A DNA stretch of 64,000 nt from contig JAHEZL010000012.1 of the NCBI GenBank assembly GCA_023251095.1, positions 42,243 through 106,242 on the forward strand, written 5' to 3'. Of this stretch, positions 6,794 to 44,355 are shown piece after piece. Origin of the DNA: Flavobacteriales bacterium (GTDB lineage: Bacteria > Bacteroidota > Bacteroidia > Flavobacteriales_C > GCA-002722245). The position numbers were made by a program, and so were the translations under genes. Position 1 is the stretch's first letter. Each line of letters begins with the position of its first letter. Under the pieces are notes generated by a model, which was not told where the DNA came from, made no database searches, and was given only the letters and a program-made list of their open reading frames with translations.

Positions 6794-9482
6794 TTTCCTG
6801 TTTTTTAGAAGTTTTAGTTCTGTGCACAATGGCGATGGTGGTTCCTATAATCATTACGATACAGCCTGTCCACAAGATGTTGATGAGCGGAAATTGAATG
6901 GCCTTCATCACAATGAATTCACCGCCTGAATAATCGGTCATTTCAAATTCGAAATATTGTTTTTCATAATTAATATCAACGAGTTTGAATTTCGCCTTCA
7001 GACCATCTACTTTGGTTTCGGGCGACGACATTTTTTTTCCTCTCACGTCGTTCATCACTACTACAAATTCTTCTTTTGCTTTTCCGGGATAGTACACTTC
7101 TAAAACTGCTCCCACGTTTACTGCGGAATCATTTTTAGTTGGATGAGTAATGCTTACCTGCGCTGCTTTAAAATATAAGATGGCGTTGTTTACGCTTACG
7201 GTATCGCCCTTTCCGAGTTTAATTCCTTTGTGTTCGGCAACCTTATAAGTTTGTAAATGCGTGTAAATATCTTTGTGTAAATAGTGTTTGGTGTCGGGTT
7301 CGGGTACCTTTCCCATTTTGTCGTTCAATTGAAAAAACGGACTCAGTGTAAAATCTTTTTCGAAAGTGGAATCGGATTTTTTACGCAGGTAATCAACATC
7401 AAAATGAAGGTCGACACCCTCCTGATAAATTTTATTGAAAGTCACATAGTAATCTCCCATTGGTAAAGTATCTCCGCGGGAAAGAAAAAGATTCTCATTG
7501 TTTTTCATGGTGTTATCGCTCGCCTTTTCCAAATCAAATTTCGAAGTGTTTTCTGAAATCACTTCGCTTTGTGAAGTAGAAATAAAGGCGCCCAGCATAA
7601 TCATTCCAAAACCCAGATGAGCGATGGGTGCGCCCGACGATTTTAAATTTCCTTTGAGCACTCTTACGAAGTAGCCCACATTGCCTACAATAGCGAAAGT
7701 AGCGGCAAAGAAAAACAGCCAATACAGCACCAAACGGAAAGGGTCGTTTTCATAATCAAACTGATAGGAAAAGGCGATCAGTAAAGAGATGAAAGCAGTA
7801 ATTACAAAACTGAGGGCTAAATCGCCCAATAATTTTTTTGTTGGTGTTTTGCTGTATTTCAAGTACAAGCCGCTACCCATCAATAAACAAATGATAAAGC
7901 CAAAAAGAATCTGATATTTCACATAAGATTCAAAAACATCTTTGTTGGAAGCGAGGTTTGTACCGAACACTTTATTGATGACAGGGAAGGAAGTGAAAAT
8001 GATGATTTGCAGACAGGAGATCAACAGCATGATGGCAGCAATGAACATCCAGAATTCGCGGGAACTCACATCTTCTTCTTTTTCGTTTTCCTCTTTCGGG
8101 AAAAATTTAAGATAAGAGAAAACAAAAAGCGCGAGGTAAGCAGTGATTAAAATAATGGACAGTACTTTTAAATCTTCCACATAAAACTGAACGACAAAAA
8201 AGCAAAGGGAAAGTACGGTGTAAGCAATGCGCAGCATTTTGTTCCAAATCACTAAATAGCCTGCCAGCCACCAAAAGAAAAAGAGAAAAATCAATAGCTG
8301 TCCGGGCAAACCATCTGCGAAAGAATGCACCGAAGTATCGCCTAAAATTCCGCTGCGGGTGAGGTAAGTAGAGTAGAGCACCAGTAAAAAAGAAACCATT
8401 GTGAGCAGGAAAGTAACATAAGAAGATTTTCCTTTTTTGCGTTGAACGATCATCACGTGCGCTGCGCCAACAAAAGTGAGCCACGGAAATAGCGAAGCAT
8501 TTTCAACAGGATCCCATGCCCAGAAACCACCAAAGCTCAAAGCTTCATAAGCCCATGCACCACCCATTAATATTCCGGTTCCGAGGGCAGCAACACCAAA
8601 GAAAATCCATGGCAGAGCAGGTGTCATCCATTCATTTAATCTTTTGGTCCAAAGTCCGGCAATCGCAAAAGTAAAAGGAACGAGAGTGGAGGCGAAGCCT
8701 AAAAACAACATCGGCGGATGAATGGTCATCCAGTAATTTTGCAGCAAAGGATTGAGTCCGTTACCATCTAAAGCATGCAAGTACTGCGGATCTTTGAAAA
8801 AAAGTTCGTTGGCAAATTGAGGATATTCGCGGGTGAGGATGTTAAACGGACTGCTTCCGATTTGAAAGCCGGGAATATTTTTATTCATAATAAAGCCGCC
8901 AATCGCAAGGATAGCGCCTCCTATGGTGAATCTTTCAATATTAGATAAGCGGTTCCAGATTAAAAACAAAATGAATAACCCGGCAACAATAATCATGATG
9001 CCCGCATAAGGTCCGTCGGGAATGTGAATACCGAGCAACATGGAAATTAAAAAAACCTGAACAGCTGAAAACACAGCCATTACCGGACTTTCCCATTTTT
9101 TTGCAGTGAAACATAAAACACTTCCCAACACTACATGCCAGATGGTCCACAACAAAAAGCTACCTTCCTGACCTTCCCAGAAACAGGAAAGAATATAGCG
9201 CAAAGGCATAACGTTGCTGGAGTGTTTCCACACGTAGTAATATTCGTAACGGTGGTTGTACAACATTGTGAAAAGCAAAGCCACAATACCAGCCACCGCA
9301 AGAGCATGAGTGAAAAAAGCCCTGCGACCGATTTTTCTCCACGATTCTTTTTCATGCTCGGGGCCTTCTACAGCGAAGTAGTGAGCGACAGAAGAGAGGA
9401 TAGCAAACACAAAGGCGATGAGCACAAAGATGTGTCCCCATTTTCCCAATTGTAAATTTTCGCCGATGTAGTTGAGTTCCAT
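6783..9482 (-). CDS. ccmF: Cytochrome c heme lyase CcmF
   Basis: WEGQEGS, GLNPLLQNYWMTIHPP, WAYEALSFGGFWAWDPVENAS, SVHSF. Confidence 0.95.
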   Translation of the reverse strand: MELNYIGENLQLGKWGHIFVLIAFVFAILSSVAHYFAVEGPEHEKESWRKIGRRAFFTHALAVAGIVALLFTMLYNHRYEYYYVWKHSSNVMPLRYILSCFWEGQEGSFLLWTIWHVVLGSVLCFTAKKWESPVMAVFSAVQVFLISMLLGIHIPDGPYAGIMIIVAGLFILFLIWNRLSNIERFTIGGAILAIGGFIMNKNIPGFQIGSSPFNILTREYPQFANELFFKDPQYLHALDGNGLNPLLQNYWMTIHPPMLFLGFASTLVPFTFAIAGLWTKRLNEWMTPALPWIFFGVAALGTGILMGGAWAYEALSFGGFWAWDPVENASLFPWLTFVGAAHVMIVQRKKGKSSYVTFLLTMVSFLLVLYSTYLTRSGILGDTSVHSFADGLPGQLLIFLFFFWWLAGYLVIWNKMLRIAYTVLSLCFFVVQFYVEDLKVLSIILITAYLALFVFSYLKFFPKEENEKEEDVSSREFWMFIAAIMLLISCLQIIIFTSFPVINKVFGTNLASNKDVFESYVKYQILFGFIICLLMGSGLYLKYSKTPTKKLLGDLALSFVITAFISLLIAFSYQFDYENDPFRLVLYWLFFFAATFAIVGNVGYFVRVLKGNLKSSGAPIAHLGFGMIMLGAFISTSQSEVISENTSKFDLEKASDNTMKNNENLFLSRGDTLPMGDYYVTFNKIYQEGVDLHFDVDYLRKKSDSTFEKDFTLSPFFQLNDKMGKVPEPDTKHYLHKDIYTHLQTYKVAEHKGIKLGKGDTVSVNNAILYFKAAQVSITHPTKNDSAVNVGAVLEVYYPGKAKEEFVVVMNDVRGKKMSSPETKVDGLKAKFKLVDINYEKQYFEFEMTDYSGGEFIVMKAIQFPLINILWTGCIVMIIGTTIAIVHRTKTSKKQENAG

Positions 9483-38465: not shown

Positions 38466-38490
38466 GGAAATAGAAATAATAAATAAGAGG

Positions 38491-38524
38491 AAATCCATCC
38501 GTCAGCCGACGGATGGATTTTTTT
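38491..38524 (+). terminator. Rho-independent terminator after icd; left border of the defence island
   Basis: AAATCCATCCGTC-AGCC-GACGGATGGATTT followed by T run. Confidence 0.9.
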
Positions 38525-38543
38525 GTTTTCTGAGAACGGATTT

Positions 38544-39680
38544 TTATTTCACCAAACTTATTTGTGAAGAGTATTTTGAATATAAATCATAAATAATACC
38601 GATCAATGTTTCAATTATATCATTCCAATCCGAATCATTTTTTATGTTTATTTTTAATGCTGATCTAAAATGAGCAATTGAATTTCTAGTTTGGTAAATA
38701 TGTTTTGATATAAGAGGGATTTCATTGTCCTTTTGTATTGTATCGGTAATTTTAAAGACAGATTTAATACAAGTGACCATTTGAGATACAGAGTCTTTTT
38801 CTTCGATTTCTTTTATAAGCTTTTCTAAAGCTTGATCCTCTCGAGGTCTCCAGTTTAAGTCGATTTCAGTGTTTTGAAATAATTTCTTAAAATGGATTGG
38901 GTCTCCTAAATTATTAGATAGGCATATTAAATAAGGAATTGGATATAAATATTCAATGCATTGATAAAGCTCTAAAAAGGAATGTTTCCATTCCATTGAA
39001 ACTATTGCCCGAAGTAAGTTTCCTCCGATTAAATCAATAGGTAATTCTTCGATTAATAATTTTAGGTTTAATAAAGTATCGCTATAAAAATTTAAATTAA
39101 AATTCTTTTTCTGTTCTATTAAGAATCCTGCGTAAAGTGCTAAAAGTGTATTAGGAGTAATATTAAGATCGATATCTAATTCCCATATTGAAAAGTCACT
39201 AAAAAATTGTGTTAATTCATTTGCTTCAAATGCACCTTCGGCTTTACCTTCTCTAGAAAAAACCTTTTCCATTAATTCATATCGGATATCCCTATTTGAG
39301 ATAGGGAATTTTTCTTGTGAAAACAATAATGTAATTAGTCCAGGATTATGTTTGAAGTCTTGTTCTGTATTGTCAGGATCCAACACTGGATAAACTCCTT
39401 TGAGAGAAAAAGAAGATGTTTCGAATGCTCCTGTTATTATTAAGAATATTCTATCTTCCATTGAAAGTGTGAATATCATCGTTTTGTTAGAGGTCTCTAA
39501 GACTTCATTAATAGAAGCTTTTGTCAGTATTTCTTGTGCAAAACTTTCTTTTTTAGTTTGGATATATCTAATCGTGTCGGATCCTAAATTAAAAGACTTT
39601 ACCGTAGCGTTTTCAGTTGGCAATTCTCTTTCTAATCGTTCAAAGAGAGTTCTGTTTATCTCTTTCTTGTTGTTAGTCAT
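38544..39680 (-). CDS. HEPN-domain protein (putative RNase effector)
   Basis: FLELYQCIEYL helix and C-terminal RNSIAH (RxxxxH) motif. Confidence 0.7.
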   Translation of the reverse strand: MTNNKKEINRTLFERLERELPTENATVKSFNLGSDTIRYIQTKKESFAQEILTKASINEVLETSNKTMIFTLSMEDRIFLIITGAFETSSFSLKGVYPVLDPDNTEQDFKHNPGLITLLFSQEKFPISNRDIRYELMEKVFSREGKAEGAFEANELTQFFSDFSIWELDIDLNITPNTLLALYAGFLIEQKKNFNLNFYSDTLLNLKLLIEELPIDLIGGNLLRAIVSMEWKHSFLELYQCIEYLYPIPYLICLSNNLGDPIHFKKLFQNTEIDLNWRPREDQALEKLIKEIEEKDSVSQMVTCIKSVFKITDTIQKDNEIPLISKHIYQTRNSIAHFRSALKINIKNDSDWNDIIETLIGIIYDLYSKYSSQISLVK

Positions 39681-39698
39681 AGAGAAAAAATAAAAATC

Positions 39699-40895
39699 TT
39701 AATATGCTCGCCAACATGGCTCTAATGATTGGAAGTTAAATTCGTCTGAAAAAATCAAGCGAAAAGCTTCAAGATAAAAGGCTCTTTGCCAATCTCCAAT
39801 TTTATTAGTAGGAGCTTTTTTAATCATTTCATTTAATATTGAAAAAGAGAAAAAATCTTTTTTTTCTTCTGGTTTAAGAAGGTTTATTTTTTCTATCATT
39901 TTTTTTGTTGAGGTCTCTATTTTTTCTAAATATTTTTTTTGTTCATCAGCTGTTTTATTTGTTCCGACACGACCAAATATTAATTGAGAGCAAGCGACAG
40001 TAAAACCAATTTTAGCAGGCATACTATCAAATATATGTCTGCCAATATTTATCTTCCCCTCATCAATGGTTGTTTTAATAGCATCTTCAAAAGCTATATC
40101 CAATTTTGAAATTGATGCAAAAACAGCAATAAAATCTTCTAGGAAATTCTCATTGGCAAGAGCTTCAATTAAATCTAATCTTGTGAAGTCTTCTGCTAGA
40201 ACTGAGGCAGTGTCAATTTTTTCTTTCCTTAATCCAAATGAAAGATACATTTCAATAATATCATCAGCATGAAAATGTCCAGCTTTTAGTCTAGCGCCGT
40301 TCTGATCAATTTTGATGAAAATTATTCTTTGTGCAATATCAGGATATTTGTTTTTAACTCTTTTGTCAATTTCCTTTATTAATGGTTCATAAACAACTTC
40401 TATTTGTCTTCTGAGGTTCCATGGTACTTGACCTGTATTTAAAACTAACATTCTGTATGTTAAACTTTCTGTTTTAGTAGTTACCCAAAATTCGACTCTA
40501 ATATCTCTGTCTTTTGAGTTTTCTAAGCATTCTTTGTATACTGTTGTTCTTTGCATTCCATCAATAATAGAAAATGCATCTTTTGAATGATCACTTATAA
40601 GAGTTAAAAGCTTTTTGTTGTCATCAATTTGTTTGACCCAGTTAAATTTTTCTTGATCAACAACAAGCCCAACAACAACAGAAGGAAATACGGCTTTCTT
40701 TTCAAAATCTTCAATCATTCTTTTTCTAATCCGTATTCCAGAAGTTGATGATAACTTATCTCTTTGACCACTAATTTTACCTTGAGCGTCATATGCAGGA
40801 GTAACCAGTGATATGTAGTTGGAAAGCTTCATTTCTGTTAGAACACTATAGCAATTTGAGCGTTCATCAAATTCTGTATTTAAAAAAGTGTACAT
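39699..40895 (-). CDS. ParB/Srx-like (DUF262/DndB-type) protein
   Basis: GQRD...FPSVVVG...IIDGMQRTT...MLVLNTGQVP, matching the QR / DGxQR / xxxN motif set. Confidence 0.75.
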   Translation of the reverse strand: MYTFLNTEFDERSNCYSVLTEMKLSNYISLVTPAYDAQGKISGQRDKLSSTSGIRIRKRMIEDFEKKAVFPSVVVGLVVDQEKFNWVKQIDDNKKLLTLISDHSKDAFSIIDGMQRTTVYKECLENSKDRDIRVEFWVTTKTESLTYRMLVLNTGQVPWNLRRQIEVVYEPLIKEIDKRVKNKYPDIAQRIIFIKIDQNGARLKAGHFHADDIIEMYLSFGLRKEKIDTASVLAEDFTRLDLIEALANENFLEDFIAVFASISKLDIAFEDAIKTTIDEGKINIGRHIFDSMPAKIGFTVACSQLIFGRVGTNKTADEQKKYLEKIETSTKKMIEKINLLKPEEKKDFFSFSILNEMIKKAPTNKIGDWQRAFYLEAFRLIFSDEFNFQSLEPCWRAY

Positions 40896-40896
40896 G

Positions 40897-42051
40897 TTAT
40901 ATAAATCTTATTTGTAGGTTTATTTTGATAAATAATTTCCCGTCCTCTTGATACAACCATCCGTAATAATATTTTTTAGTTTCCTTTGTTGTTCGAGGTA
41001 CACCAGGGTTATTTCCATCTTCTCCAGTTGACGGCTGTTCAAATTTTGTGTTGTTTATTAAGTATTCTCGTAATAAGTTAAAGTCGTATATGTGAAAACA
41101 AACAATATCACCGTCTTCTTTTGCGATTATTACTCCTCCCGTAGCATCATAAACTCCTTGCCAAACAGTTTCCGAGGTCATTCCCATTGCGCATTCTGCT
41201 AGGAATCTTTTAAGTTTATATTCGTATAGTTTTTGTTCGGATTCCTCACCATTATAAAAATTAAGAGGGTCTCTCTTTTCTAATAATTCACTTATTTTCA
41301 TTAAAGATGAGTCTCTTTCTAGCCATCTATATAATAATGAATGAGCAATGATTTCAGGTAAATCACCATCAATCATTTTTAAATTTTTAAATAATTGAGG
41401 AGATTGAATTCCTTTAAACTTGATTTTTAAACCAAGTTCTTCGGTAATCATTTTTAAACGAGCAGTTAGCTTTGAGACTCTGCCTGGTGGTTTGTAAGTA
41501 ATTCGATTAAATTCTTCTAAAGAAATGTTTAAATCATTTTCAACTTCATAAATGAAATTATTTCCTAATCCGGTATTGAATAACGTGGAATCTTCTCCAA
41601 TTAATGATTTTACACTGAAGCCTAAATCTGCTTCTGTAGCTAGTCGATGGTCGTATATTCTAAGTTTTATATCAGTTTTACCTGATGTTAATGCAGTGAG
41701 TTTTTTAATCTGTGCATTTTCAATAAAATCATTTGCTTCTTCTATGTTAAAACTTTTTCCTTTGTTTTTTTTGATTCCCTTATAAATGAGTTCGGATTTT
41801 TGATTAAGATAATTTAGGTCTAAGCTACCCGATAGTGTTTTTTTACCATTCATTACCTTGTAAACTTGCACTTCGTTGCCTCTTTCATATTCGATTGATG
41901 AGTTTGATTCTTCTCGATATGCTTTTGTTATTTCATAATAGGAATTTTCATTTTTATTTAAATTGATATCTGATTGAAATAATTTTCCTTCAGCTAAAAG
42001 TTTAGCAAAAACATAAAGTTCACTCCATTCACCTTTATTTCCTTTCAACAT
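40897..42051 (-). CDS. HpaII-family type II restriction endonuclease
   Basis: GNKGEWSELY start, KTDI..LGFSVKS..STLFN, GMT...W.G...ATGG, LQIRF end; adjacent to an M.HpaII-like methylase. Confidence 0.9.
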   Translation of the reverse strand: MLKGNKGEWSELYVFAKLLAEGKLFQSDINLNKNENSYYEITKAYREESNSSIEYERGNEVQVYKVMNGKKTLSGSLDLNYLNQKSELIYKGIKKNKGKSFNIEEANDFIENAQIKKLTALTSGKTDIKLRIYDHRLATEADLGFSVKSLIGEDSTLFNTGLGNNFIYEVENDLNISLEEFNRITYKPPGRVSKLTARLKMITEELGLKIKFKGIQSPQLFKNLKMIDGDLPEIIAHSLLYRWLERDSSLMKISELLEKRDPLNFYNGEESEQKLYEYKLKRFLAECAMGMTSETVWQGVYDATGGVIIAKEDGDIVCFHIYDFNLLREYLINNTKFEQPSTGEDGNNPGVPRTTKETKKYYYGWLYQEDGKLFIKINLQIRFI

Positions 42052-43316
42052 ATTATTTTTATTCCAATCGTTTCTAAAATTTTATTTGCCGTTGCTTGAA
42101 TTGCCGGAACGGCAACAGAGTTCCCGAATTGTTTATATGCGGAAGCATCAGCAACAGGAATAACATAATTGTCGGGAAAACCTTGAAGTCTGGCCCATTC
42201 TCTGGGGGTCATTTTACGAACACCTTCACGATTTACACCTCCTTTAATTTTTGTTTCCGGAGTGAAGTCTGTGATTCGATCATCTATAACTAAATTCCTT
42301 TCACGTCCCATACCTCCGCAAACAACGGCGTTCGCAATACCTGTATCAGGAATAATTTCAAATCCAAAACCATTGCCTTTGCTTGCATGTCGGTTTTTGT
42401 GATTATGTAAAGTTTGCAAGTATTGAATGGAAAGGTAATAACGCGTTGGTACAACTTTTTTCTCTTTCACGTTTGAAAAAGTCACTTTTTTCTTTACGGG
42501 TTTTGGATATTCAAATTCAGTAATATTCAAATCTTTTCGAAATCCGACAATGTATATTCTTTCACGATTTTGAGGAACTCCAAATTCTTTTGCGTTGATG
42601 ATCTGAGGTTCCGGAACAAAATATCCGAGGTCGTTTCTTAAAACATTTAAAATGGTTTCTAGTGTTTTTCCTTTATCGTGACTTCTTAATCCTTTTACAT
42701 TTTCAAGAAAAATTGCTTTTGGCTTTTTACGCTTAATGATTTCGGCAACATCGAAAAACAAAGTTCCTCTGGTGTCATCAAAGCCACCGCGTTTACCTGC
42801 AATTGAAAATGCTTGACAAGGGAATCCTGCACACAAAACATCGAAACCATCTGGGATATAATTTTTCACTTGATCTTTGGTTATGTCACCAAAGGGAACT
42901 TCTCCAAAGTTTGCTCGATATGTTTTTTGTGCTTCTTTATCCCATTCACTTGTAAAAACACATTTCCCTCCCAGATTTTGCATTGCCAGTCTAAAGCCGC
43001 CAATCCCTGCAAATAGATCTATGAATTTAAAACTATAATTGTCAGGGGTAGGGAATGGAACATTTTCAACTTCAAATAATAGCTGTTGTAATGCGTCTTC
43101 TGCTGCTAAAGAAAAATTCTCTTCGTCTTGTTTGTATGTGACGAACTCTTTTAAAACTTTCAGAGCATCTTTTTTGTAGTGTTTTGACACGCCATTATCT
43201 ATGTTGTGGAGATAATGGGTTAAAACAGCCTTTTTATTATCAATTGGCTCGACAAGTCTTATTTGAAGACGTTTGCCGTCAAATTCATTAATACTTATTT
43301 TTTCTTTTAGCTTCAT
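42045..43316 (-). CDS. DNA (cytosine-5)-methyltransferase closely resembling M.HpaII (CCGG)
   Basis: FAGIGG, AGFPCQ, ENV, QNRERI, GNSV; variable region SKGNGFG..GGMGRERNL matches M.HpaII as I recall it. Confidence 0.95.
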   Translation of the reverse strand: MKLKEKISINEFDGKRLQIRLVEPIDNKKAVLTHYLHNIDNGVSKHYKKDALKVLKEFVTYKQDEENFSLAAEDALQQLLFEVENVPFPTPDNYSFKFIDLFAGIGGFRLAMQNLGGKCVFTSEWDKEAQKTYRANFGEVPFGDITKDQVKNYIPDGFDVLCAGFPCQAFSIAGKRGGFDDTRGTLFFDVAEIIKRKKPKAIFLENVKGLRSHDKGKTLETILNVLRNDLGYFVPEPQIINAKEFGVPQNRERIYIVGFRKDLNITEFEYPKPVKKKVTFSNVKEKKVVPTRYYLSIQYLQTLHNHKNRHASKGNGFGFEIIPDTGIANAVVCGGMGRERNLVIDDRITDFTPETKIKGGVNREGVRKMTPREWARLQGFPDNYVIPVADASAYKQFGNSVAVPAIQATANKILETIGIKIIC

Positions 43317-43719
43317 TGATCGTTTCGATAATTGTATCAGTGCAAGTTCGTGAATTTTTAATTATGTCCTTACCCCAAAACCTTAAAACTTTCCAGCCAT
43401 CTTTCAACAATTTTTCATTCACTTCTCTATCTCTTTCAATATTTCGTTCAATTTTAGCTAGCCAAAAGTCTTGATTGGTCTTGTGATCATGCTTTTTTGT
43501 TTCCCAATCCTTCCCATGCCAAAATTCACTGTCTACAAAAACAGCGATTTTTAGTTTTTTGAAAGTTAAGTCGGGTTTGCCAAATACGGTTTTGTCATTT
43601 TTACGGTAACGATATCCGAGGGAAAATAAAGATTTAGCTAAAACAGTTTCAATTTTTGACCCCTTAGACTTAACCGCTTGCATATTTTTTTTGCGTTGTT
43701 CTTTGGTTAGCTTGTCCAT
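43288..43719 (-). CDS. vsr: Very short patch repair endonuclease
   Basis: MD.LT.EQR..NM, GKPD, FVDSEFWHG, KIERN..RD, GWKVLRFW. Confidence 0.95.
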   Translation of the reverse strand: MDKLTKEQRKKNMQAVKSKGSKIETVLAKSLFSLGYRYRKNDKTVFGKPDLTFKKLKIAVFVDSEFWHGKDWETKKHDHKTNQDFWLAKIERNIERDREVNEKLLKDGWKVLRFWGKDIIKNSRTCTDTIIETINEAKRKNKY

Positions 43720-43865
43720 GGAATCTATTGAGATTTTGTTCTATTGATAAATTTAATGTTGATTTATCATAATGTGCAATTTTGAAGTGATAATTGTTTA
43801 ACAAAACAGTGATAAAATAGGGGTGTCTATTATTTCCAAGTAATGCAAACAAGAGAAAATAGCCA

Positions 43866-44312
43866 CTATTTCTTATACTTCATATCATGCAATTCCTCCG
43901 CCTCTTCAATAGAATGCGATTGAGATAAATCGCTTTCTTTTTTTGCCATGGTACTCAACTTGTGAAAATAACTACTCAGAATTTTCAATTCTTCTTCATT
44001 GAGGTTTTCAACGTCGATGAGTCGGTTGCTGGGTCCATTGAGCGAAGCGATCAATTCATTTAGTTTGAGGTGGATGGCCTGAGAGTCTTTGTTTTGTGTG
44101 CGCTGAATGAGGAAAACCATCAGGAAGGTAATAATAGTAGTGCCGGTGTTGATGGCCAGTTGCCATGTGTCGGAAAAATCAAAGAGGGGTCCGGAAATCA
44201 ACCATCCGATAATAATGATCAGCGCTGTAATAAAGGCGAGGGTAGTACCTGTGAAAACAGTTGCTGAACGGGAAATGCTTTCAAAAATGTTGGTTTTTTT
44301 ATTGGTTGTCAT
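43866..44312 (-). CDS. Low-affinity iron permease (Fet4-like) family protein; ATG start at 44312
   Basis: FSDTWQLAINTGTTIITFLMVFLIQ.TQN.D..A..LKL.EL. Confidence 0.92.
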   Translation of the reverse strand: MTTNKKTNIFESISRSATVFTGTTLAFITALIIIIGWLISGPLFDFSDTWQLAINTGTTIITFLMVFLIQRTQNKDSQAIHLKLNELIASLNGPSNRLIDVENLNEEELKILSSYFHKLSTMAKKESDLSQSHSIEEAEELHDMKYKK

Positions 44313-44355
44313 AACAAGAGATTTTCTTTTAACCAAAGTAACACTTTTCAAAAGT

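Follow-up and report, generated by a model that had tools for sequence, protein, structure and literature searches.

Dazbog, a named anti-phage system of two genes, is ascribed to Millman et al. 2022. Its trigger was studied by Stokar-Avihail et al. 2022. The operon carries dzbA and then dzbB. One preprint (10.1101/2022.08.27.505566) describes DzbA as a DUF262 protein and the Dazbog of Bacillus mycoides GOE9 as toxic together with the DNA C5 methylase of the phage SPR. Escaper phages had null mutations in this methylase and lost their CCGG methylation, as read with HpaII. The same text reports growth arrest at high multiplicity of infection, and in the literature Dazbog protects through arrest of growth or death. 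In the view of its authors, the DUF262 domain may be what senses methylated DNA. Defence is lost in DUF262 mutants (PMC10952713). Later reviews repeat the account of the trigger, and one of 2025 states that the activation of Dazbog by phage methylases remains unclear (PMC12409349). In these sources, the abortive phenotype and the C5-methylase trigger are published only for the validated member of B. mycoides GOE9. Here, we describe a pair of genes from a stretch of 64,000 nucleotides (nt) of a Flavobacteriales bacterium (contig JAHEZL010000012.1, positions 42,243 to 106,242 of the forward strand), referred to as the window. Both the dzbA-like and dzbB-like genes are found head to tail with an HpaII-type restriction-modification (R-M) module that would make 5-methylcytosine (m5C) and with a vsr gene, on an acquired island. 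We consider it probable that the pair is a two-gene abortive-infection system of the Dazbog family, from a sister clade of the canonical one.

The DzbA-like protein has 398 amino acids (aa) and is encoded at 39699-40895 on the minus strand. It matches the DzbA profile of PADLOC (PDLC03835) with an E value of 1.2e-47 and 161 bits. This match is full length, with residues 5-396 on the profile positions 5-383 of 393. The DzbB-like protein (378 aa; 38544-39680, minus strand) matches the PADLOC DzbB profile (PDLC03836) with 8.8e-9 and 33 bits, with residues 180-370 on the positions 146-337 of 341. The DzbB model matches 23 of the 41 family members, and the best value is 1.4e-10. So, the score of the window DzbB is typical of its own clade. 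The preliminary description of this DNA had taken the two genes for an uncharacterised module without a name. This claim falls, since both genes match the profiles of the named Dazbog system, the outcome that the description itself had set against its claim.

We compared the PADLOC DzbA model with 401 genomes of the window's class, which gave 13 places in 12 genomes. They form three groups. The first consists of canonical pairs, where DzbA scores 324-481 bits and DzbB 170-214 bits, while the pair of the window has 161 and 33. The second is the window's clade (DzbA 161-193 bits, DzbB 32-49 bits). The third is a short form with five places (L117-L121), where a DzbA-like protein of 340 aa is followed by a partner of 295-306 aa. 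The short DzbA-like proteins match the PADLOC DzbA model at about 1e-38 to 1e-49, in the first 260 profile positions only. Their partners show no PADLOC match (five of five tested) and no Pfam match (two of two tested). Judged by these profile scores, the pair of the window is a divergent member of Dazbog, from a large sister clade of the canonical (PADLOC-seed) Dazbog. In the literature searched, we found no experiment on any member of this clade. The pair is not a new system. Its clade is very large and only just caught by the current models, and its value lies in the context.

Compared with canonical Dazbog, the pair differs in its lower scores and in its neighbours. It is co-oriented with an HpaII-type R-M module and vsr, and lies 1 nt from the former. 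Five tightly packed open reading frames (ORFs) of the minus strand compose the cluster. The first is vsr (43288-43719; 143 aa), which encodes a very-short-patch T:G mismatch endonuclease (PF03852 9.6e-32, TIGR00632 3.1e-47). It is followed by a C5 cytosine DNA methyltransferase similar to M.HpaII (42045-43316; 423 aa), with matches to PF00145 (3.1e-103), TIGR00675 (2.1e-96), and PADLOC MTase_II (4.9e-131). This methylase is the only PF00145 match in the window's genome. The third gene encodes a type II restriction endonuclease of the HpaII family (40897-42051; 384 aa). It matches PF09561, RE_HpaII, with 2e-95 (profile positions 1-335 of 359) and PADLOC REase_II with 1.5e-64. An R-M system of HpaII type is thus present, with methylase and nuclease adjacent. 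The family membership of the nuclease points to CCGG as its predicted specificity. Finally, the dzbA-like and dzbB-like genes close the cluster. The vsr and methylase genes overlap by 29 nt, and the methylase and nuclease genes by 7 nt. A gap of 1 nt separates the nuclease from the 398-aa ORF, and 18 nt separate the latter from the 378-aa ORF. Promoter-like sites were not above those of shuffled sequences (22 against 24.5). The ORF list, GC profile, and alignments confirm what the preliminary description had seen here: five co-oriented genes, gaps of 1 and 18 nt, AT-richer DNA, and the DGMQR and RxxxxH motifs.

The DzbA of the window presents the motif IIDGMQRT at residues 110-117, and the amino acids from I110 to T117 are invariant in 26 of 26 homologues. 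Its match to GmrSD_N (PF03235) is weak, with an E value of 0.032 and 14.8 bits against a cut-off of 33.2. Likewise, the match to the DGQHR domain model (0.0021) is under its cut-off. Among the matches listed, PF03235 is precomputed on 17 of 120 DzbA homologues. The structural model (predicted local distance difference test, pLDDT, 83.4) shows an N-terminal alpha/beta domain and then a C-terminal helical domain. The best rows of VIA-align are the ParB-like PadC (Z 6.2), two sulfiredoxins (6.0 and 5.5), BrxU (5.4, with 257 residues aligned), and ParB-N (5.2). KorB (Z 4.6) and SspE (Z 4.2) follow. In total, proteins of the ParB, sulfiredoxin, or GmrSD families take up 8 of the 50 VIA rows, among them ranks 1-4, 6, and 7, with Z values of 4.2-6.2 that stay under the bar of the tool. 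Foldseek found nothing at E<=0.001 for this model in the PDB. The DzbA profile gave only chance-level rows against PDB sequences, with no solved relative among them. The model suggests that the N-terminal domain has a ParB/Srx (DUF262-like) fold. This agrees with the invariant IIDGMQRT, with PF03235 on homologues, and with the published DUF262 description. It is suggestive only, because the Z values are under the bar and Foldseek gave nothing significant.

The DzbB of the window contains an R-x4-H motif, R332-N-S-I-A-H337. All 41 family members keep R332 and H337, and N333 is nearly invariant. Y239 and E243 are likewise invariant in all 41. The model (pLDDT 88.6) shows an alpha/beta domain at the N terminus (1-190) and a helical one at the C terminus (193-378). 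For residues 193-378, HEPN proteins account for 13 of the 50 best VIA rows. Their Z values are only 4.5-6.2, and the bar for helical folds is higher. Among them are AbiA, a HEPN/MNT toxin, SO_3166, Csm6, RnlA, Cas13d, AbiV, and MtlR. The match to HEPN_Apea has an E value of 0.0026 and 18.6 bits against a cut-off of 24.4, and that to PADLOC Cas13a also has 0.0026. Foldseek of the model against the PDB gave nothing at E<=0.001, and the DzbB profile had no match in PDB sequences. The model rows suggest that the C-terminal domain is HEPN-like. The earlier assignment of the pair as ParB/DUF262-like plus HEPN fits the motifs and the weak profile and fold rows.

GmrSD, BrxU, and SspE are nucleases that sense modifications and combine DUF262 with DUF1524. 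The window DzbA resembles them in its predicted N-terminal domain of ParB/Srx (DUF262-like) type, in its DGQQR-type motif, and in being linked to modified DNA. This resemblance, together with the weak rows to BrxU and SspE, could be taken as a sign of type IV-like restriction. The pair would then cleave or nick modified DNA, as these systems do, and would not kill by RNA cleavage. Reviews also place Dazbog among the systems that sense modified DNA. However, neither DzbA nor DzbB has a DUF1524/HNH domain or another DNA nuclease family in Pfam, NCBIfam, and PADLOC at E<=1, and the C-terminal part of DzbA is plain helical. The putative effector is here a separate protein, and this protein, DzbB, bears the HEPN signature. 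Moreover, the phenotype reported in the literature is abortive, with arrest of growth at high multiplicity of infection. We regard type IV-like restriction as very improbable, the least probable of the explanations weighed here.

The two genes travel together. The window DzbA has 1539 homologues at E<=0.001, over many phyla. The DzbB profile finds 894 representatives (50% identity) at the same threshold, and 559 at E<=1e-30, nearly all of them colinear over about 350 residues. From species-representative genomes, we kept 79 distinct loci (80 were fetched, and L043 was left out because it shows the L042 contig a second time). By clustering, 70 of the 79 have a DzbB homologue as the next gene after DzbA, in the same orientation, and one of these paired copies, that of L035, is broken. 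Among the remaining nine, four are truncated at a contig end, four have no partner, and L080 has a divergent ORF of 375 aa that bears R-x4-H. In predicted viral contigs, DzbB follows DzbA in 19 of 19 complete copies. Both counts mean that the pairing is more than chance. No Dazbog-like genes were matched in the phage genome collection. A metagenome scan with the window DzbA gave only two loci, one of them a contig of 1 kb (one upstream frame was translated, with nothing readable).

Some copies deserve a separate mention. In the nearest relative, the locus L001 of a Flavobacteriaceae metagenome-assembled genome, dzbB is interrupted by an in-frame stop some 37 codons from its start (~9190-9380), which would be a pseudogene or an assembly error. 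The contig of L042 and L043, with a length of 14.5 kb, carries one DzbAB locus at both ends in inverted orientation. It could be an inverted duplication or an assembly artefact. In Verrucomicrobiota, L028 (1717-9173) and L064 present a longer DzbA-like protein (478-520 aa) without DzbB. There, the gene adjoins a C5 methylase and genes for a HATPase_c_3 protein, an HNH protein, and a SNF2 helicase.

To describe the context of the pairs, we clustered the 1090 ORFs of the 79 loci in an unbiased way. The C5 methylases form the third largest cluster, after DzbA and DzbB, with 15 genes in 14 of the 79 loci. Eleven of the 15 are on the strand of the pair, and 13 or 14 are within 2.5 kb. The one in L028 lies 334 nt away in divergent orientation, as measured by hand. 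The partner nucleases are different: HpaII (L001), Eco29kI (L037), NaeI (L056 and L065), and GIY-YIG (L062 and L071). The locus L036 has DUF4928 with a PADLOC REase_II, and the same REase_II is present in L012 and, by clustering, in L039 and L040. Several of the linked methylases are accompanied by Vsr. The gene order also varies, either methylase (M), nuclease (R), dzbA (A), and dzbB (B), or A-B-M-R, or divergent or convergent arrangements. The window and its two nearest linked loci, L001 and L002, keep the link to DzbAB at a considerable distance. Their methylases are 68% and 62% identical to that of the window, and their DzbA 53% and 43%. For the nuclease, the identity is only 37% in L001, and unknown genes take its place in L002.

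Other samples give the same picture. In the class sample, 4 of 12 places have a C5-methylase R-M. Two of them, L114 (5472-11068) and L113 (5774-11491), have the canonical DzbA and DzbB (DzbA 324-355 bits) between a C5 methylase and a nuclease of the MvaI/BcnI family, in the order M-DzbA-DzbB-R. The genes lie on one strand with junctions of a few bases, and the methylase (735-773 aa) has an N-terminal Arm-DNA-bind_5. L114 is intact. In L113, DzbB is apparently fragmented, split into small ORFs. Two of the five short-form places adjoin C5-methylase R-M modules, with HNH_2 in one case and NgoFVII in the other. Such modules are also present in 2 of the 4 new places of a Bacilli sample (401), in 3 of 21 viral contigs, and in the Roseobacter plasmid pTB3, one of three plasmid matches opened. 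The physical coupling of Dazbog-like pairs to C5-methylase R-M modules recurs, and these modules are their commonest neighbour. We found no statement of this coupling in the literature searched, which did not include the final article of Millman et al. 2022 and its supplements, where neighbourhood tables are possible.

We estimated how often this linkage changed with a quick maximum-likelihood tree of the 79 DzbA. It needs nine changes, at least six of them forced by well-supported branches, and it is present in none of the 25 cyanobacterial rows. As a background, five DzbA-bearing genomes, taken by their position in the list, give 31 PF00145 rows in 25.6 Mb. About 1.3 C5 methylases are then expected in the 1.1 Mb of loci, against the 15 seen (an excess of about 11 times; Poisson 2e-11). 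Amino-methylases have 39 rows genome-wide against the 31 of C5, but appear in four loci near the pair against 15 C5 genes (Fisher p 0.009). These statistics are rough, since the loci are related to one another, a row does not equal a gene, and the amino-methylases were counted after a motif prefilter.

The cluster of the window lies on an AT-rich island (38466-43865), delimited by the GC profile and by genome comparison. It extends from the end of icd (38465) to an iron-permease gene (43866-44351). Its GC content is 0.28-0.33 over 38500-42000 and 0.32-0.38 over 42000-44000, with 0.39-0.44 in the flanks and 39.0% in the genome. The PADLOC DzbA model matches only 1 of the 22 genomes of the order, the window's own. 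The relatives keep icd but not the island. At the same site, from icd to the permease gene, one congener (G001; L092 3117-6056) has other cargo, composed of an HSDR_N-like nuclease-domain protein, a PhyH dioxygenase, an ORF of 96 aa, and a zeta-toxin/AAA-like protein. In another congener (G006; L093 5186-7566), a copy of the methylase (86% DNA identity) and an HpaII-family nuclease are found elsewhere, without vsr or DzbAB. The island was acquired horizontally, at a variable site that is a hotspot for mobile cargo. We found no convincing flanking repeats of the island. The window's genome does not avoid CCGG. It has 10,455 sites, with an observed/expected ratio of 0.90, the twelfth of the sixteen 4-nt palindromes. 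With a resident R-M of HpaII type, this fits a recent arrival.

Considering the published trigger and the gene content, we propose the following mechanism. The nuclease would cut the incoming DNA that has no CCGG methylation. DzbA, through its ParB/Srx DUF262-like nucleotide-binding domain, would respond to foreign cytosine methylation. DzbB would be the RNase effector by means of its HEPN-like R-x4-H domain, or a partner that also restrains DzbA. Dazbog may then kill the cells infected by phages that evade restriction through self-methylated DNA, and the check would be two-sided. If the R-M is active, the host methylates about 10,000 of its own CCGG sites, so DzbA must tolerate the resident pattern. 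It follows that the sensor cannot respond to m5C as such, and it would read the sequence context, the density, or the foreign enzyme. In this scheme, the window DzbA might tolerate the resident methylation and answer to other m5C contexts or to a foreign enzyme. An association of methylase and pair is the opposite of what a general m5C sensor allows, and this suggests a division of labour. The nuclease would remove the DNA that lacks the resident mark, and Dazbog the cells invaded by other marks.

A stronger form of this proposal is that the pairs in about one fifth of the loci are wired to the resident m5C R-M, sometimes inserted between M and R. Here, the methylase would set the self pattern of DzbA. 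Unmethylated sites would be cut, and foreign m5C patterns or methylases would trip the suicide arm. We hold this form as tentative and rather doubtful.

Several points weigh against the proposed reading. The function of the pair is a predicted one. For DzbB, the match reaches only the C-terminal half of the PADLOC profile and leaves the N-terminal half of the protein uncovered. The fold matches are weak (Z at most 6.2), the Pfam HEPN and GmrSD_N matches are below their cut-offs, and the statistics given above have their limits. The operon would be self-toxic if Dazbog sensed CCGG methylation as such. The published data are silent on which methylated site is sensed, or whether it is the enzyme itself. 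Most of the loci, 65 of 79, have no C5 methylase nearby, and G006 keeps the same R-M without DzbAB. Dazbog also works alone in B. subtilis, according to the trigger preprint (10.1101/2022.08.27.505566). The many loci without methylase and this autonomous defence indicate that R-M is a frequent companion of Dazbog and not a required component.

The last three of these facts are also what independent systems would show if they stood side by side in a plain defence island, with a tight spacing due to the compaction of mobile cargo. Integrases and toxin-antitoxin genes are likewise present in the loci, and the site of the window is a variable hotspot. However, simple neighbours would not easily give the excess of C5 methylases over the genome-wide density or their preference over amino-methylases. 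The repeated changes on the DzbA tree come with differing nucleases and gene orders. In L114 and L113, the pair is embedded inside the R-M module, and the window, L001, and L002 keep the linkage despite their divergence. For these reasons, we judge plain neighbourhood unlikely as the explanation.

The effector scheme itself may be less simple. According to the Millman preprint, transformation with a dzbB deletion failed, "possibly due to toxicity". As the deletion was not obtained, DzbA alone may be harmful and DzbB may restrain it, which goes against a simple scheme with A as sensor and B as effector. The same observation would suit an addiction module, where DzbA and DzbB are mainly a toxin-antidote pair that stabilises the R-M island and phage defence is secondary. 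The presence of the pair on mobile islands, small conjugative plasmids, and predicted viral contigs would suit it as well. Nevertheless, phage protection and a specific phage trigger are published. At about 380-400 aa, both proteins are larger than classical antidotes. R-M systems are themselves addictive, and because of this a second stabiliser would be redundant. We consider a mainly addictive role highly unlikely, although slightly less so than the type IV-like restriction discussed above.

The abortive reading has a known parallel. PrrC with EcoprrI is a suicide effector of HEPN type that is embedded in or joined to an R-M operon, where it backs up the first defence. In contrast to the window pair, PrrC is a fusion of ABC-ATPase and HEPN that guards a type I enzyme against a phage inhibitor, and the partner in the window is a type II m5C R-M. 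Pfam and PADLOC gave no PrrC or ABC-ATPase match in the pair. The preliminary description had placed an abortive-infection layer behind the R-M. Such a layer fits the trigger published for Dazbog, a phage DNA cytosine methylase. The idea that it fires upon blocked HpaII restriction, as in PrrC-like guarding, found no support.

If the stronger form of the proposal is true, such a methylation checkpoint would close the commonest route of escape from restriction. The window operon would be a natural test case, since its own methylase is of HpaII type, the same site family as the trigger of the validated Dazbog. This likeness between the window methylase and the SPR trigger is at the level of the predicted CCGG site. 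The repeated and independently arisen coupling argues that the family is tied to cytosine methylation by its own biology, and the cases include the window, whose host has a C5 methylase of CCGG type as its only one. It also supplies natural operons for a direct comparison of self and non-self methylation.

Other pairs have a similar composition. The pairs of DUF262 (NsnA/PD-T4-2_A-like) and HEPN_MAE_28990 (Anantharaman 2013; relatives of Menshen) likewise have a HEPN protein after a DUF262 protein. The 2013 table places them in operons with DNA methylase genes. The preliminary description had mentioned that ParB, HEPN, and methylase neighbourhoods were known computationally, and this table does list such operons. 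However, its HEPN family differs from DzbB. We rejected the assignment of DzbB to HEPN_MAE_28990, since the proteins of that family have about 222-245 aa and match PF18737, and no DzbB does. The A1 and A2 profiles found nothing in the loci of those pairs.

As a separate observation, five cyanobacterial genomes that also have DzbAB carry, elsewhere in the genome, a GmrSD_N/NsnA-like DUF262 protein (about 365-383 aa) directly before a HEPN_MAE_28990 protein of 222-245 aa (L122-L127). In the window's genome, CTAG is strongly avoided, with an observed/expected ratio of 0.34. Finally, a hairpin similar to a two-way terminator is located between the converging icd and dzbB genes (38487-38524). It has a stem of 17 pairs followed by a T run on the plus strand, and a stem of 13 pairs on the minus strand.

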